A stretch of DNA of 22,654 nucleotides from an uncultured Candidatus Bathyarchaeia archaeon. Its GTDB lineage: Archaea; Thermoproteota; Bathyarchaeia; Bathyarchaeales; Bathycorpusculaceae. The translations under genes and the position numbers were made by a program. Below, piece after piece: positions 1,975 through 8,518 of the stretch (positions within the stretch are counted from its first letter, which is position 1; each line of letters starts with the position of its first letter). The stretch covers positions 1 through 22,654 of the forward strand of contig CAYVGZ010000017.1 in the NCBI GenBank assembly GCA_964450845.1. Reading direction: 5' to 3'. The notes under the pieces are model-generated. The model saw nothing but the letters and a program-made list of their open reading frames with translations, ran no database searches and was not told the DNA's origin.

Positions 1975-3255
1975 ATGCCTAGAAATTACTGGAGTGAAAT
2001 AAAGGACCCCGTGCATGGATACGTATACATAACCGAAAAAGAAAAAGAAATAATCGACTCTTTCCCATTCCAGAGACTACACAGACTACGCCAACTGGCA
2101 GGCGCAGAATACGTTTATCCAGGAGCAAACCACACGCGTTTTGAACATTCTATCGGCGTTCTGTATTTGGCGGGCAAGGTTGCGGAAAACCCCAATATTG
2201 CCCGAAGCACAAGCGAAGACGAAACAGAAATTGTTAGGATTGCGGCTTTGCTTCATGATGTCGGACATGGACCCTTCTCGCATGTTTTTGAACATTTACT
2301 CGATAAAGAGTTGAGGAAGACGCATGAAGACATGACACATTGGGTGATCACAAACAGCGAATTAAAAGACAAACTCGGCAGAATTGGATATGACTCGAGA
2401 GAAATAGGAAAACTGGCAATAGGCGTCCTTCACAAACCCAAAAAAGCATTCCTAGACCAAATAATAAGTAGTGCTGTTGACGTAGACAAACTAGACTTCG
2501 TCGTACGCGACACACATCATACAGGCGCTGAATACGGGTACATCGACATTTTCCGACTAATCCATGCCCTAGACATCCTAGACGAAAATTTAGCAGTGGA
2601 TTTGGGCGCACTTTCAGCCCTTGAATCTCTCATAATAGCCCGAATAGAATCATTCAAAAGCATATACTTTCACCGAGTCGGAAGAGCAGCACAAATAATG
2701 CTCGCCACGGCTATGGAAAAGGCAAATGAAGAACTCGGCTTAACAAGTTTCAAAACTACAGAAGAGTACCTAGCCATGGATGATTATACAGTGTGGACTA
2801 AACTGAAAAACTGCAAAAAATCAAGCGGAATCATAAAAAATCTTGAGAGGCGAAAACTGCTCAAATGTGTCTATGAGAGAACTTTTTACGAAAAAGACGC
2901 TATGATTTCAAACATTTTTAGCCAAGAAACACATAGAAAACAGCTACAAGTAGACATTTCGAAAAAGGCGGGGGTTGAAACAGAAGCAGTTACAATAGAT
3001 GTGCCTACAGTTCCATCCGTCCCATATCACCATTCAGTTCTCATGGAACCCATGGAAATCCCAGTGTTCTACAAAACATGGGAAGGCAACAGGGTTATAC
3101 AACGTTTAAGCGAAATTTCAAAAATTTTCGAAGTTCTAAAGGGCTTCATAAACATATTACGCGTCTACACAGATGAGGAAAACCGTGAAAAAGTCAGCAA
3201 TGCAGCTTCAAAAATTTTAGGTGACATTCCCACATCAGCAAAAATATCATATTAG
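1975..3255 (+). CDS. HD-domain phosphohydrolase, dNTP triphosphohydrolase/SAMHD1-like
   Basis: DPVHG, FQRL-x2-LRQL, YPGANHTRFEHSIG, ALLHDVGHGPFSH, DVDKLDFVVRD, YFHRV motifs. Confidence 0.9.
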   Translation: MPRNYWSEIKDPVHGYVYITEKEKEIIDSFPFQRLHRLRQLAGAEYVYPGANHTRFEHSIGVLYLAGKVAENPNIARSTSEDETEIVRIAALLHDVGHGPFSHVFEHLLDKELRKTHEDMTHWVITNSELKDKLGRIGYDSREIGKLAIGVLHKPKKAFLDQIISSAVDVDKLDFVVRDTHHTGAEYGYIDIFRLIHALDILDENLAVDLGALSALESLIIARIESFKSIYFHRVGRAAQIMLATAMEKANEELGLTSFKTTEEYLAMDDYTVWTKLKNCKKSSGIIKNLERRKLLKCVYERTFYEKDAMISNIFSQETHRKQLQVDISKKAGVETEAVTIDVPTVPSVPYHHSVLMEPMEIPVFYKTWEGNRVIQRLSEISKIFEVLKGFINILRVYTDEENREKVSNAASKILGDIPTSAKISY

Positions 3256-3265
3256 AGTGCATGAC

Positions 3266-3679
3266 ATGCAGCCAATAACATTAAGGGGAAGAGCAATCGT
3301 AGAGGGATGTTGCAAAGCCGAAGCCCTAGTGTCCACAAAGCCGATAAGCTTTTTGGGAGGAGTCGACCCTGCAGATGGCAAAGTATCCGACAAAAACCAT
3401 GACTTATGTGGTGAATGCATTAAAGACAAGGTTCTATGTTTTCCACATGGACACGGCTCAACCGTAGGCAGTTATGTGCTATATTCTCTAGCGAAGAAAA
3501 AGTTGGCGCCAAAAGCAATAGTAAATCAGAAAGCTGACCCAGTTGTTGTGGTTGGAGCCATAATCGCCAACATTACCATGATTGACCAAATAGACATCAC
3601 ACAAATCAAAACAGGCGACTTAGTTGAGGTTAACGCTTACGAGGGCTTCGTTAAGGTTTTGAAAAGAAAGGAGAACTGA
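3266..3679 (+). CDS. Aconitase X small (swiveling, DUF126) subunit; probable phosphomevalonate dehydratase small subunit
   Basis: PISFLGGVD and GHGSTVGSYV with the catalytic Ser; adjacent to the DUF521 gene. Start set to ATG 3266 rather than the upstream in-frame codon inside the HD gene. Confidence 0.88.
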   Translation: MQPITLRGRAIVEGCCKAEALVSTKPISFLGGVDPADGKVSDKNHDLCGECIKDKVLCFPHGHGSTVGSYVLYSLAKKKLAPKAIVNQKADPVVVVGAIIANITMIDQIDITQIKTGDLVEVNAYEGFVKVLKRKEN

Positions 3680-3685
3680 ATAGGC

Positions 3686-4861
3686 ATGTACTTAACGAGG
3701 GAGGAAGAGCGCATCTACGATGGCGAGTTTGGCTGGGCAAACCAGATATGCATGAAAATACTTGTCCGTTTGGGTGAACTTTTCAACGCAACAAGGCTAA
3801 TTCCAATAAATTCCGCACATGTCTCTGGAGTCTCATACAAAACTCTGGGCGATGCTCCATCAGATTTCCTAGAAGCACTAGCGAATGACGATGCAAGAGT
3901 GAAAGTCAAAGCAACACTAAATCCGCAAAGTTTTGACAGGGAATATCTGTGCAAAAAGTTGCCACAATATCTGCATCGAAAACAGTCAAATATTATGACA
4001 TTTTTTGAGAAAATGGGTTTTACTGAATCATTAACATGCACGCCATACTACATGGAAAACCCAAAGAGAGGTTCACACCTAGCCTGGGCTGAGTCTTCAG
4101 CCGTAATTTTCGCCAATTCTGTCGCCGGAGCATGGACGAACCGCGAAGGAGGACCAAGCGCCCTAGCAGCAGCAATAATCGGAAAAACACCAGATTATGG
4201 AATACACAAAGCTGAAAATCGTCAACCAAAAGTTTTGGTAAAACTGGAAAAGCAGTTGCAAAGCGAAGTAGAATTTGGGGCTCTAGGAATATATTTGGGC
4301 AAAATTTTAGAAGACAAAATTCCAATAATTCAAGGCTTACAAAATGCTTCAGAAGACAATTTAAAACAGTTAGGAGCTGCTCTTGCATCAACAGGCATGG
4401 TCAACATGTTCTACCGTGAAAATAGAGACATAAAATTTAGTGAAACCGAAAAACTAAGCGTAGAAACTAGAGACATAAAGCAGACAACCGAAAATTTGAC
4501 TACGACCTCAACGCAGAAACCAGACTTAGTCTTTGTCGGGTGTCCTCACTGCTCATTAAACGAAATCAAACAAGTAGCAGAGTTAATAGGCATCGGAGAG
4601 GTTAAGGAAGGAACAGAATTTTGGGTTTGCACTTCACGCCATATCAAAGAAAAAACTAGAAAATATGTGGAAAAAATAGAGAAAAGCAGAGGCCACGTAC
4701 TTACAGACACATGTGCAGTGGTCACATGGACTGAAAAACTTGGAATAAAAACGATAATGACAAACTCTGCAAAAACAGCCCACTACGCACCAACATTAAA
4801 CAAAGCAGAAACCATATTCGCACCATTGAAAGAGTGTCTAAAAACAGCCTTTAAGGGATAA
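3686..4861 (+). CDS. Aconitase X large (DUF521) subunit; probable phosphomevalonate dehydratase large subunit
   Basis: MYLTREEE, HVSGVSY, three cluster-ligand Cys motifs (TCTPY, GCPH, DTC), WAESSAV-x2-ANSV-x-GA-x-TNREGG. Confidence 0.9.
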   Translation: MYLTREEERIYDGEFGWANQICMKILVRLGELFNATRLIPINSAHVSGVSYKTLGDAPSDFLEALANDDARVKVKATLNPQSFDREYLCKKLPQYLHRKQSNIMTFFEKMGFTESLTCTPYYMENPKRGSHLAWAESSAVIFANSVAGAWTNREGGPSALAAAIIGKTPDYGIHKAENRQPKVLVKLEKQLQSEVEFGALGIYLGKILEDKIPIIQGLQNASEDNLKQLGAALASTGMVNMFYRENRDIKFSETEKLSVETRDIKQTTENLTTTSTQKPDLVFVGCPHCSLNEIKQVAELIGIGEVKEGTEFWVCTSRHIKEKTRKYVEKIEKSRGHVLTDTCAVVTWTEKLGIKTIMTNSAKTAHYAPTLNKAETIFAPLKECLKTAFKG

Positions 4862-4909
4862 GATTTATTCGAATGAAGATGTATTTTGCATGATGCTCCG
4901 GCATAAGGG

Positions 4910-5013
4910 GCTCCGGTAGAAGAAACCAAAAAGAAAGGTTCTACCGAATATAGCCCGGTCAAGTATTCCGGCCTTTCGAGCCGAAGACGCGGGTCCGAAT
5001 CCCGCCCGGAGCA
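4910..5013 (+). tRNA. tRNA-Glu (anticodon TTC) with 29-nt intron 4920-4948 at position 10/11; CCA not encoded
   Basis: After removing 4920-4948: acceptor GCTCCGG/CCGGAGC plus discriminator A; D-stem GTAT/GTAT; anticodon arm CCGGC-CTTTCGA-GCCGA; T arm GCGGG-TCCGAAT-CCCGC. The intron junctions fit bulge-helix geometry (CGGT/ACCG helix, AG|A and AA|T bulges). Confidence 0.92.
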
Positions 5014-5016
5014 CTA

Positions 5017-5040
5017 TTCTTACTCTTTTATTTATCATTT
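5017..5040 (+). terminator. T-rich archaeal terminator after tRNA-Glu
   Basis: TTCTTACTCTTTTATTTATCATTT immediately 3' of the tRNA. Confidence 0.5.
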
Positions 5041-5102
5041 GCAAAAACTCATATACAGGCTACTCCTATCGAATACTCTTCACTCTTAGAGGCGAATGAT
5101 TT

Positions 5103-6638
5103 ATGGCGGAAAGAGTGTTTTCAAATTATAAGAAACTCATGGAAAAAGTTAAGCACTTGGCAATTCTGCTGTCAGCTGAAGCCATTGTCCATTGGGATAT
5201 GGAAACAATGATGCCTCCAAAGGCAATAAGATTGCGGAGTCAGCAACTAGAATTGCTTAGCCGTATTGAACATAAGATGAGCACAGACCCAGAAATAGGA
5301 ACTTTATTGGAAGAGATTATGCGGCAATCGATGTATGATAAGCTGGATTATGTTCAGAAGAGAAACGTATACTTAATAAAGAAACAATATGATGAACAGA
5401 CGAAGCTTCCTGAAGAACTTGTTGCAGAAACTGCAAAACAACAGGCCATAACCGTAGATGTTTGGAAAAAAGCCAAGGCAGCAAAAAATTTCTCGATGTT
5501 CAAACCTGAATTGGAAAAGCTTGTTGAATTAAGGAAAAAGGCTGCAGAAATTTTGATGGAAGTTAAGGAGACCGCGACACCATACGATGCGTTAGTAGAC
5601 ATTTTTGAGCCGAAAATGACAGCCAAAACAATCACCAAAGTTTTTGACGAATTAAGAGAAGGCTTGGTTTCGCTGCTTAGGAAGTGTGAAGCCTCCAAAA
5701 AACAACCAGACATAAGCATTCTGAAAGGTGAAGTTCCAATAGACATACAACGCAAGATTTCCAAAGCACTTGCAGAATTTGTCGGATATAATGTAGAGTC
5801 GAAAGAGGCTGGTGGCAGAATCGACGAAACGGAACATCCCTTCACAACTGGTTATTATGATGATGTACGAATAACAACACACTATTATGAAGATTACTTT
5901 GCATCTTCACTGTTTTCAGTACTGCACGAAGCTGGACATGCCATCTATGAGCAAAATCTAAAAAAGGATTGGATGTATCAACCAGTAGGCTCAAGCTGTT
6001 CCTCGGGGTTTCATGAATCGCAAGCTCGGTTCGTGGAAAACATTATTGGACGTTCTCGTGAATTCTGGGCTCATTTTCTACCAAAACTGAGAGAAGTTAC
6101 AGGCAATATTCTTTCAGACGTAGACTTAGACAAGTTTGTCCATGCAGTCAACCAAGTTAAGCCTTCCAAGATTCGCGTTGAGGCAGATGAAGTTACATAT
6201 TGTCTTCATATAATTGTAAGGTTCAATATTGAGCGAGATTTATTCGCTGACAAAATAATGGTGAGGGAGCTCCCAGAAATATGGAACCAAAGTTACAAGG
6301 ACTATCTTGGTGTGCATATTGAGAACGATTCTGAAGGCGTAATGCAAGACACTCATTGGGCTAGCGGCTTATATGGCTATTTCCCAAGCTACGCATTAGG
6401 CAACATCTACAGTGGACAAATCCTCGCCACAATGGAAAAAGACTTACCAAACTGGAGAAAACAAATCGAAAAAGGAAACTTCAGTTCTGTGAAAAATTGG
6501 CTAGTCAAAAGCGTTCACAACTACGGAAACTTGTATGATCCACCAGAATTGATCAGAAACATCGCAGGAAAAGAGCTGAGCGTCAAACCATACTTAAACT
6601 ATCTTAACGGAAAATATTCGACGCTTTACGGTTTCTAA
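5103..6638 (+). CDS. Carboxypeptidase M32 (Taq/Pfu type)
   Basis: HPF, DVRITT, HEAGH (HExxH), HESQ, IRVEADE, GVMQDTHW, GYFPSYALG motifs. Confidence 0.95.
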   Translation: MAERVFSNYKKLMEKVKHLAILLSAEAIVHWDMETMMPPKAIRLRSQQLELLSRIEHKMSTDPEIGTLLEEIMRQSMYDKLDYVQKRNVYLIKKQYDEQTKLPEELVAETAKQQAITVDVWKKAKAAKNFSMFKPELEKLVELRKKAAEILMEVKETATPYDALVDIFEPKMTAKTITKVFDELREGLVSLLRKCEASKKQPDISILKGEVPIDIQRKISKALAEFVGYNVESKEAGGRIDETEHPFTTGYYDDVRITTHYYEDYFASSLFSVLHEAGHAIYEQNLKKDWMYQPVGSSCSSGFHESQARFVENIIGRSREFWAHFLPKLREVTGNILSDVDLDKFVHAVNQVKPSKIRVEADEVTYCLHIIVRFNIERDLFADKIMVRELPEIWNQSYKDYLGVHIENDSEGVMQDTHWASGLYGYFPSYALGNIYSGQILATMEKDLPNWRKQIEKGNFSSVKNWLVKSVHNYGNLYDPPELIRNIAGKELSVKPYLNYLNGKYSTLYGF

Positions 6639-6924: not shown

Positions 6925-7026
6925 AATATGCAGGAAAACATGATCTTCAGAATTGCATCCGACAGTTATTGGACCAGATTCATTTCCTTTTCTGCATATT
7001 ATTGTTGATTCCGACAGTTTTATATA
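6925..7026 (+). promoter_or_regulatory. fae-hps upstream region: inverted repeat, direct repeat and TATA box
   Basis: AATATGCAG (6925-6933) / CTGCATATT (6992-7000); TCCGACAGTT at 6958 and 7010; TTTATATA at 7019-7026, about 35 nt before the ATG at 7061. Confidence 0.55.
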
Positions 7027-7060
7027 CAACCTTAACCATTGTTGCTTGTGGCGATTCAAA

Positions 7061-8518
7061 ATGTCGGAAGCCAATATCAGGAAGCCGGCGACGAGGGAAG
7101 AATTTATCAAAATATTGACGGATGCTGCTAAAAAAGAAGTCGAAACTCGTGGTGTTCTGAGGAGGAGACCGACGAAACCGACAATCTCAGGAACGGCTAA
7201 ATTTTTGAACGTACATAGGGACACTCTTTATACGTGGCTTAAAGAGTTTGATGTCGATTTTGACAAGATTTCTGGGGGAATATCGACAAATTTATTGTCG
7301 GAAACTGTCGAAGCGCCCCGAAAATATGCGTATCTGATTGGCGAGGCTCTCGTAGGAGAAGGTAATGAGGTTGCACATATCGACCTTTTGATAGGCGACA
7401 AAGAGGGACCTGTCGGTGAGGCTTTCGCTTCTGGCATTTCTAATCTTTCTGTTGGACATACTCCATTGCTGGCGGTTATAAGACCTAATCTTCCCCCCAA
7501 ACCTCATACGTTGCTTGTGCCAAAAGTCACTATCAAAAACCTTGAAGATGTAGGGAAAATTTTCGGCCCTACACAAGCTGCTGTGGCGAAGGCTGTTGCA
7601 GACTCTGTGGAGGAAGAAGTCATTCCTAAGGATAAAGTGGACGACTGGGTCATCGTGTGCAGTGTCTTTGTGCATCCGCAAGCGAATGACCCGCGCAAAA
7701 TATACCATTACAACTACAGCGCAACCAAGTTAGCTTTGAAAAGAGCTATAGCGAAGTATCCGACGCTGGAAAAAATCCTCTATGATAAGGACAGAGCCAA
7801 ACATCCGATAATGGGATTCAGAGTGCCACGCCTATGGAGACCGCCATATCTGCAAATCTCGCTTGACATTCCAGACCTAGAAAGGACAAAGAAAATCATC
7901 GCTCAAATTCCCAAAAGCGACAGAATAATACTGGAGGCTGGAACACCTCTCATTAAAAGGTATGGAACAAAGGTGATAAGTGACTTAAAAGAAGTTGCCA
8001 AAGAAGTATTTTTCGTTGCTGATTTGAAAACTTTGGATGTTGGAAAGGTTGAAGTAGATTTAGCCTATGATGAAACTGCCGACGCAGTAGTTGCAGCTGG
8101 ACTGGCGCCTGCTGAAACGCTTGATTCTTTCATCCATGAAGCAAAAAGACTTGGAATATATGCTGTAGTTGATATGTTAAACGTTGATGACCCCATTAAG
8201 AAGCTGAACCCACTAAAGGAATTTCCAGACGTGGTCATCTTACACAGAGGAATTGACGAAGAAACCGGAAGAGCAATAGGATTAGAGCAGATCCAACAAA
8301 TGCGACAAATTTTTAAGGATAAGCGATTTTTGATTGCGGTGGCAGGTGGAATAGTGCCAGAAACAGCCAAAGAAGCCTTAGAAAAAGGTGCCGACATAAT
8401 TATTGTCGGAAGGTATGTGACACAATCTAAAGACATTGAACGAGCCGTAAGAGACTTCCTTGAACTGACACCTGCAATGCGAGAAGACGTGGACTTGTTT
8501 AGAGTTCACGTAGAATAA
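7061..8518 (+). CDS. fae-hps: Bifunctional formaldehyde-activating enzyme / 3-hexulose-6-phosphate synthase with an extra N-terminal HTH domain
   Basis: Fae motifs GEALVGEGNEVAHIDLLIG and FGPTQAAVAKAV; HPS motifs EAGTPLI, DLKTLD, HRGID, VAGGI, IVGR; about 88 extra N-terminal residues containing an HTH pattern. Start set at ATG 7061, downstream of the TATA box. Confidence 0.92.
   Translation: MSEANIRKPATREEFIKILTDAAKKEVETRGVLRRRPTKPTISGTAKFLNVHRDTLYTWLKEFDVDFDKISGGISTNLLSETVEAPRKYAYLIGEALVGEGNEVAHIDLLIGDKEGPVGEAFASGISNLSVGHTPLLAVIRPNLPPKPHTLLVPKVTIKNLEDVGKIFGPTQAAVAKAVADSVEEEVIPKDKVDDWVIVCSVFVHPQANDPRKIYHYNYSATKLALKRAIAKYPTLEKILYDKDRAKHPIMGFRVPRLWRPPYLQISLDIPDLERTKKIIAQIPKSDRIILEAGTPLIKRYGTKVISDLKEVAKEVFFVADLKTLDVGKVEVDLAYDETADAVVAAGLAPAETLDSFIHEAKRLGIYAVVDMLNVDDPIKKLNPLKEFPDVVILHRGIDEETGRAIGLEQIQQMRQIFKDKRFLIAVAGGIVPETAKEALEKGADIIIVGRYVTQSKDIERAVRDFLELTPAMREDVDLFRVHVE

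Follow-up and report, generated by a model that had tools for sequence, protein, structure and literature searches.

A predicted intron between nucleotides 10 and 11 of a bathyarchaeal tRNA-Glu gene, accompanied by a conserved leader copy of the acceptor strand

The tRNA-Glu locus

The window, by which we mean the whole 22,654-nucleotide stretch of DNA analysed here, lies on contig C17 of a bathyarchaeal assembly (1.64 Mb in 120 contigs, 93% complete, 41% G+C). Across positions 3221–6638 the gene order runs from the AcnX small subunit through AcnX and tRNA-Glu to an M32 carboxypeptidase, and a Fae/Hps fusion gene comes next at 6953–8518. The linkage between AcnX and tRNA-Glu is kept throughout family f1 and beyond, so that orthology is easily established. 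The letters at 4910–5013 are identical to those quoted in the original prediction, which had read this segment as a tRNA-Glu(UUC) gene with an intron between nucleotides 10 and 11. The features of the gene and of its leader are collected in Table 1.

Table 1. Features of the tRNA-Glu gene, its intron and its leader, in window coordinates.
Feature	Coordinates	Strand	Remarks
TATA-like box (TTTATT) of the tRNA-Glu promoter	4864..4869	+	start lies 31 nt before the G of the copy; putative function
Leader copy of acceptor nt 1-7 (GCUCCGG)	4895..4901	+	G4895 is the probable transcription start; proposed stand-in ('decoy') strand
Leader spacer (CAUAAGGG)	4902..4909	+	last GG can extend the weak outer helix with D-loop C17/C17a
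Exon 1, tRNA nt 1-10 (GCUCCGGUAG)	4910..4919	+	identical in intronless orthologues
Central helix H, 5' strand (C5 G6 G7 U8)	4914..4917	+	pairs with 4943-4946
Intron, 29 nt, between nt 10 and 11	4920..4948	+	absent at the exact junction in about 20 orthologues; removal restores the tRNA
Intron hairpin h' (AGAA-CC/GG-UUCU)	4921..4942	+	A4925 bulged; loop 4928-4936; predicted by folding
Central helix H, 3' strand (ACCG)	4943..4946	+	pairs with C5-U8
Exon 2, tRNA nt 11-73	4949..5013	+	anticodon UUC 4975-4977; T-loop UCCGAAU 4994-5000; discriminator A 5013; no encoded CCA
3' acceptor strand CCGGAGC	5006..5012	+	can pair with the real 5' strand or with the leader copy

Standard gene finders do not recover this tRNA. 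Whether its intron mode is on or off, ARAGORN reports nothing for the window or the unspliced stretch; once 4920–4948 is deleted, it returns a tRNA-Glu(ttc) with a 7-bp acceptor stem. The Rfam tRNA model (RF00005) matches only 4947–5005 (30.2 bits, model positions 9–63); the uninterrupted orthologue L035, whose mature sequence is identical, scores 57.6 bits over its full length. With the insert removed, the sequence adopts the cloverleaf of an archaeal tRNA-Glu(UUC), complete with a 7-bp acceptor stem, D, anticodon and T arms and the UUC anticodon.

The U54-U55-C56 triplet of the T-loop is universal among tRNAs, and near-universal as regards U55. The T-loop of this gene departs from it, with C55 at 4995. 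The same base is common to the uninterrupted orthologues in many genera of family f1 and is found in the tRNA-Thr(GGU) on contig C2 of the same genome, and on this comparison we read it as a probable lineage peculiarity rather than as decay. Two further tRNA-Thr genes, on contig C58, have odd T-loops of their own (GUCAAAG and AUCGAAG). In the anticodon stem, positions 4968 and 4984 form a C27-A43 mismatch that recurs in the genus and in several relatives (GCCGAAGAC); other relatives have C27-G43 (GCCGGAGAC).

The original prediction had proposed looking for another tRNA-Glu(UUC) gene, and there is none in the assembly, where a pattern scan and two further scripts found neither a second tRNA-Glu gene nor another Glu anticodon arm. 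With no other tRNA-Glu gene found there, this one is unlikely to be a pseudogene; the gene at 4895–5013 is apparently functional, the only tRNA-Glu gene of its host and probably essential. Elsewhere in the assembly, outside the window, a cluster of about 16 tRNA genes of bacterial or phage type, the majority ending in an encoded CCA, sits on contig C1 (G000:C1:168746-186356), which has no tRNA-Glu. At 197 kb and a G+C content of 37.6% (against about 41%), contig C1 has the appearance of a virus or of a foreign contig that entered the archaeal bin.

Intron position, splice motif and endonuclease

The region 4880–5030 was compared with 40 related genomes by blastn and the loci were then read. 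An orthologous tRNA-Glu is present in nearly all of these relatives, often at the same site downstream of AcnX. About 20 of them carry an uninterrupted gene in which GCTCCGGTAG is joined directly to TATAG (RNA junction GGUAG|UAUAG), and others carry inserts of 16–37 nt at the identical point. The intron both begins and ends with A, so that only a cut at 10/11 reproduces the conserved G10-U11. Sliding the cut by one base in either direction in this gene yields A10 or a wrong D-stem, which upholds the earlier statement that removal of 4920–4948 alone restores the D-stem. For relatives whose intron ends in G, a cut at 9/10 gives the same product as a cut at 10/11. The exact junction in the orthologues, together with an ARAGORN call obtained only after removal of the insert, supports the reading as tRNA-Glu(UUC) with an intron at 10/11, and we consider it very probable that the gene carries a 29-nt, protein-spliced intron at this position, the cleavage itself being deduced from the comparison.

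The interrupted form is widespread. Among 401 sampled Bathyarchaeia genomes a pattern scan finds it in 46, spread over 25 of 131 genera and many families, and finds the uninterrupted form in 242; a control scan of the same 401 genomes with the reversed pattern found none. The host genome has one interrupted copy and zero uninterrupted copies by the same scan. A comparative approach thus recovers interrupted tRNA-Glu genes in dozens of Bathyarchaeia, genomes of a group that look tRNA-Glu-less because standard tRNA finders miss the interrupted gene. The intron-bearing sample comprises 48 distinct genes from at least 12 families, with 46 distinct introns of 16–37 nt.

Some members of the sample are more heavily interrupted. 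At loci L090–L107 (family f35, genus g132; L092 is an example) the 10/11 intron sits in tRNA-Glu(CUC), which in this genus carries up to three extra inserts, at the border of D-loop and D-stem, beside the anticodon loop and in the T-loop, making four introns in one gene; the leader copy described below is also present. The tRNA-Glu(UUC) genes L059 (G032) and L112 (G364) have a second insert of about 17–19 nt, in the D-loop, besides the 10/11 intron.

The splicing-endonuclease geometry proposed for this gene, in which CGGT (4914–4917) pairs with ACCG (4943–4946), the bulges are AG|A and AA|T, and an intron helix AGAA/TTCT is followed by CC/GG, is present and is conserved throughout the 48 genes. 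Helix H is intact at 4 bp in every one, with all four pairs standard (192/192 cells), and its intron partner is formed by the four bases before the last two bases of the intron (ACCG, GCCG or GCUG). One-sided changes keep the pairs: U8 faces A in 25 genes and G in 23, and G6 faces C in 46 and U in 2. The 5' bulge is A9 G10|A in 48/48 genes and the 3' bulge is always A-N|U11. Next to the 5' bulge, hairpin h' forms 2–7 contiguous base pairs in all 48 genes and, on the opposite strand, runs on into H without a break. Its pairs 2–4 covary; pair 2 is G-C or A-U, and pair 3 is A-U (21 genes), C-G (15 genes), U-A, G-C, U-G or G-U. Pairs 1–3 of h' are paired in 138 of 144 cases (96%) in register. When the 3' partner is slid by 1–3 nt as a control, pairing amounts to 10–72% for H and 17–42% for h'. 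The geometry of the splice motif is conserved far beyond chance.

Canonical BHB motifs are cut after the second base of each bulge (PMC4090602, PMC4033280). In this gene the 4-bp central helix between exon and intron, and a 3-nt 5' bulge that separates H from h' and would be cut after its second base, correspond to the relaxed form of the BHB family. The strict hBHBh' motif, which is the substrate of α4 and α'2 EndA, also has a regular outer exon helix flanking the 3' bulge. None is found here: C4 lies opposite A12/U13, and at best an offset helix of 3–5 bp can form (U3-A14, C2-G15, G1-C16), which in this gene can be extended by leader G's pairing with C17/C17a, an extension that is inconsistent in relatives. 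As the 3' site lacks a regular outer helix, the motif is a relaxed HBh'/BHL motif and not a strict hBHBh'. The relaxed, BHL-like exon-side helix that had been described is therefore accurate, the 5' site being a proper H-B-h' and the irregularity lying in the 3' outer helix. In the minimum-energy fold of this gene A9 G10 A is paired with UCU instead of bulged, a pairing unavailable to the many relatives with a C-G third pair in h'.

RtcB is encoded in the assembly, together with one EndA gene only by Pfam search (G000:C32:630-1181, between an MtnA/eIF-2B-like gene and hisS). This EndA is a His-less structural, beta-like paralogue, with Thr at the position of the catalytic His; among solved structures it best matches the EndA of M. 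kandleri (5x89) and M. jannaschii (1a79). A tblastn search of the 93%-complete assembly found no catalytic paralogue. At least two EndA paralogues, full-length at about 185–215 aa, are encoded in 38 of the 40 relatives. The catalytic one retains the Tyr, His and Lys needed for catalysis and, among solved structures, comes closest to the catalytic subunits of S. tokodaii (2cv8), A. pernix (3p1z_B, 3ajv_B) and P. aerophilum (2zyz_B). When it is aligned with the subunits of S. tokodaii and A. pernix, its conserved YKMGFYGKPLGIPKPK stretch falls on their Crenarchaea-specific loop region; the role of this loop in EndA has been described (PMC2724299). A catalytic alpha subunit with the Crenarchaea-type loop is found in a genome of the same genus (G001) and in most of the 40 relatives, and because G001 has it and the present assembly is 93% complete, we take its absence here for a gap in the assembly; within the genus an alpha subunit is encoded at L087:431-985. 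The original prediction had placed the intron among those of TACK archaea cut at BHB/BHL motifs by a broad-specificity EndA. This agrees with a host that belongs to the Bathyarchaeia and with relatives whose two-subunit EndA has a catalytic subunit resembling the broad-specificity crenarchaeal ones. The relaxed HBh'/BHL motif fits the two-subunit EndA of the lineage.

The leader copy and predicted folding

The splice motif borrows acceptor bases 5–7 and U8, and it was correctly argued at the outset that it cannot form on a normally folded tRNA. The resulting competition between motif and acceptor stem is apparently answered by a conserved element that had escaped the first reading, the leader copy of the acceptor strand at 4895–4901. 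This copy starts 15 nt upstream of tRNA nucleotide 1. A copy of the form GCT(C/T)(C/T)G(G/A) lies 2–15 nt upstream of nucleotide 1 in 48/48 intron-bearing genes; against the 3' strand CCGGAGC it forms 7/7 pairs in 38 genes and 6/7 in the other 10 (GCTCCGA), and the only changes at copy positions 1–6 are from C to U opposite G. Information content reaches 1.3–2 bits at T(-1) and the seven copy positions, against 0.2–0.4 bits around them, and the spacers (43 distinct ones of 2–15 nt among the 48 genes) are not conserved. The distance from the TATA-like box to the G of the copy is 30–32 nt in the 12 relatives with upstream sequence in range, and aaGgTTTATTCGA is kept upstream of tRNA-Glu in family f1. 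By archaeal promoter geometry, T(-1)/G(+1) and this TATA-like spacing would place the transcription start at the copy.

Among 69 distinct intronless genes the copy is found in three (one with 7/7 pairs and two with GCTCCGA), all close relatives of intron-bearing lineages. In the remainder it is broken (GCTTCAG, GCTCATG, GCTCCCT and others) or absent, and intronless close relatives have the decayed copies GCTCCGA, GCTTCAG and GCTCATG. Five genomes have both kinds of gene, with a copy on the intron-bearing gene and none on the intronless Glu(CUC) paralogue. The leader segment thus has the properties expected of a spare strand, in that it can pair with the 3' strand and, three intronless genes apart, is confined to genes in which the splice motif takes up the real 5' strand. 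Throughout the sample the acceptor stem does not vary, which leaves the copy and the 3' strand without true covariation; an intron-bearing gene with the G7A acceptor variant seen in family f7, sought for this reason, was found in 0 of 60 genomes. A tree of the neighbouring AcnX gene (28 rows) requires at least four changes of intron state, which provide only 2–4 independent contrasts, all in the same direction, and with these a sign test cannot reach significance.

A leader that repeats the acceptor strand is not described in the reviews and papers searched. We considered whether the copy might be the true exon 1 and rejected this: seven nucleotides are kept, U8-A9-G10 follows the downstream copy only, and 10 of the copies end in A. 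At L036 (G016) the copy covers all 10 nt of exon 1 (GCTCCGGTAG-caa-GCTCCGGTAG), so that an alternative 37-nt intron would yield the same mature tRNA.

For the transcript 4895–5013 the predicted minimum-energy fold (−47.1 kcal/mol) pairs the copy with 5006–5012 and C5-U8 with ACCG, and also pairs GGGCU with AGCCC; the best fold of the same transcript that has a normal acceptor stem reaches −37.6 kcal/mol. Over 46 genes the copy-paired fold has a median advantage of 7.7 kcal/mol, and the median ensemble probability of helix H is 0.956 with the native leader, 0.22 when the copy is replaced by A7 and 0.006 without the leader. Helix H is still predicted in some of the A7-replaced genes, so the rest of the leader also contributes. 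Replacement by A7 is a cleaner control than shuffling the 7-mer, which is a poor one because G+C-rich shuffles still pair. The real acceptor fold was expected to win after splicing, and the two-dimensional energies do not show such a switch. With the intron removed, the copy-paired fold is still ahead by about 3.6–5 kcal/mol, which leaves the return to the normal stem unexplained by these energies; it would need the tertiary structure of the tRNA, proteins or kinetic capture by RNase P.

A processing model, its rivals and known systems

The explanation that best accounts for these observations as a whole is a functional gene with a 10/11 intron, a spare leader strand and an ordered processing pathway, to which we assign a probability of about 0.85. 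The primary transcript would most likely start at G4895, so that its first seven bases duplicate acceptor nucleotides 1–7. In the precursor, this spare strand may pair with the 3' acceptor strand (5006–5012) and thereby free the real C5-U8, which would pair with the ACCG near the 3' end of the intron to give the 4-bp central helix. One flank of this helix would consist of the A9 G10|A bulge and the intron hairpin, the other of AA|U11 within a relaxed loop. The (αβ)2 EndA of the lineage is expected to cut after G10 and before U11, with RtcB joining the exons; the real 5' strand would then retake the 3' strand, and RNase P would remove the leader, probably in this order.

Two statements about the copy are to be kept apart. 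From the comparison and the folding together, it seems probable, with some reservation, that the leader copy helps the splice motif to fold. The further proposal, that the copy is a required, cis-encoded folding switch which forces splicing to precede RNase P and which decays after intron loss, is one that we favour only slightly over its negation.

The strongest competitor accepts splicing of the intron by EndA and denies the leader 7-mer any role as a folding helper. The 7-mer would then be an initiator or promoter-proximal element, belong to a leader hairpin, or be left over from a duplication that arrived together with the intron and has been passed on with it since. The leaders of intronless genes in family f1 also start with tGC(T/A)(C/T)C, often with a small hairpin (GCTCCC...GGGAG or GCTTTT...AAAAGC), so that part of the motif is kept without an intron. 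The duplication of all 10 nt of exon 1 in one relative, L036, an underpowered tree-aware test with its 2–4 independent contrasts, and the failure of two-dimensional energies to predict release of the copy after splicing can all be counted on the same side. Against this explanation, the full 6–7-mer is kept in 48/48 intron-bearing genes from at least 12 families with otherwise unrelated promoters and spacers, it is broken in 66 of the 69 intronless genes, including paralogues in the same genomes, spacers of 2–4 nt leave no room for a leader hairpin, and the substitutions at copy positions 1–6 all preserve pairing with the 3' strand. We regard a leader without a helping role as possible but doubtful.

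That the locus is instead a tRNA-Glu pseudogene disabled by the insertion, with the working gene in the unassembled 6–7% of the genome, is very improbable. The assembly is 93% complete in 120 contigs, and C55 in place of U55 and the C27-A43 mismatch could be taken as signs of decay. Against this, both other genomes of the genus have the interrupted gene, as do 46 of 401 genomes of the class, and the changes in its insert are compensatory; promoter, AcnX synteny and exons are intact; neither of the two other genomes of the genus has a second Glu gene; and C55 is shared with the uninterrupted orthologues of many genera and with the host tRNA-Thr(GGU). Least probable of all is removal of the insert at another junction (9/10 or 8/9) or its retention as an extra arm of the mature tRNA, to which the local Rfam alignment (starting at A4947 and pairing A4948 as position 10) and the equivalence of 9/10 and 10/11 cuts in relatives with introns ending in G might point, since only 10/11 here matches the uninterrupted orthologues, G10 is conserved in every sampled gene, the conserved bulge geometry sets both cuts after the second bulge base, and the core of the tRNA would not survive an arm of 29 nt within its D-stem.

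Non-canonical introns at 'seemingly random' positions, with relaxed motifs and multi-subunit EndA, are well established in archaea (PMC4090602, PMC4033280, PMC8450103), as are structures of EndA (PMC2724299, PMC3488258). Like the BHB/BHL introns of crenarchaeal (Thermoproteales), thaumarchaeal and other TACK tRNAs cut by (αβ)2 or ε2 EndA (PMC4090602, PMC4033280), the intron described here is short and lies outside 37/38, has a 4-bp exon-intron helix and 3-nt bulges that would be cut after the second base, with one relaxed site, and occurs in a lineage with a two-subunit EndA whose catalytic subunit has the Crenarchaea-type loop. The intron itself thus belongs to a known class, the non-canonical archaeal tRNA introns. 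It differs from those introns in its host, one of the Bathyarchaeia, and in its position, as 10/11 is outside those named in review, a list that is left open by an 'etc.' (3/4, 20/21, 22/23, 25/26, 29/30, 30/31, 45/46, 53/54, 56/57 and 59/60; PMC4090602). It differs also in a central helix that uses acceptor bases 5–7 and U8, and in the co-conserved leader copy.

Competition with the acceptor stem has a counterpart in the 3/4 acceptor-stem intron of some Thermoproteales tRNAs (Sugahara 2008, as cited in PMC4090602), which on that summary is likewise near the 5' end and has a motif that must compete with the acceptor stem, at a different position. The nearest published idea to the leader copy is that of the leader and trailer helices of split tRNAs (Nanoarchaeum equitans, Caldivirga) and permuted tRNAs (Cyanidioschyzon), in which sequence outside the tRNA likewise shapes a precursor that EndA can cut (PMC4090602, PMC4033280, PMC3218864). 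In those systems the flanks pair with each other, form the BHB themselves and are removed by EndA, whereas here the leader would substitute for the 5' strand of the acceptor stem, outside the motif, and would be removed by RNase P. A further parallel comes from tRNA genes of Asgard archaea, where a 2026 preprint reports D-arm inserts that are commonly missed by tRNAscan-SE (bioRxiv 10.64898/2026.10.13.758758). According to that report those inserts are also short, found via compact relatives, enriched in BHB motifs, repeatedly gained and lost, and accompanied by two EndA paralogues; they belong to a different phylum, and the main text of the preprint mentions neither leader copies nor position 10/11.

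No explanation is known for the way in which a tRNA of an archaeon accommodates an intron when the splice motif and the tRNA's own helices are in competition. A leader strand standing in for the acceptor strand would, if true, be a simple, RNA-only answer. Such a helper would also impose an obligatory order in which splicing is followed by refolding and then by RNase P, and would link the gain and loss of the intron to changes outside the mature tRNA.

As a mirror case, the tRNA-Asp gene of the host genome was checked for an intron in the 3' acceptor strand and was found to carry a D-loop intron instead. This gene, at G000:C18:17895-18001, is called by ARAGORN as 'tRNA-Gly(gcc) with intron' and is really a tRNA-Asp(GUC), with a D-loop intron of about 29 nt and a central helix CCGG/CCGG.
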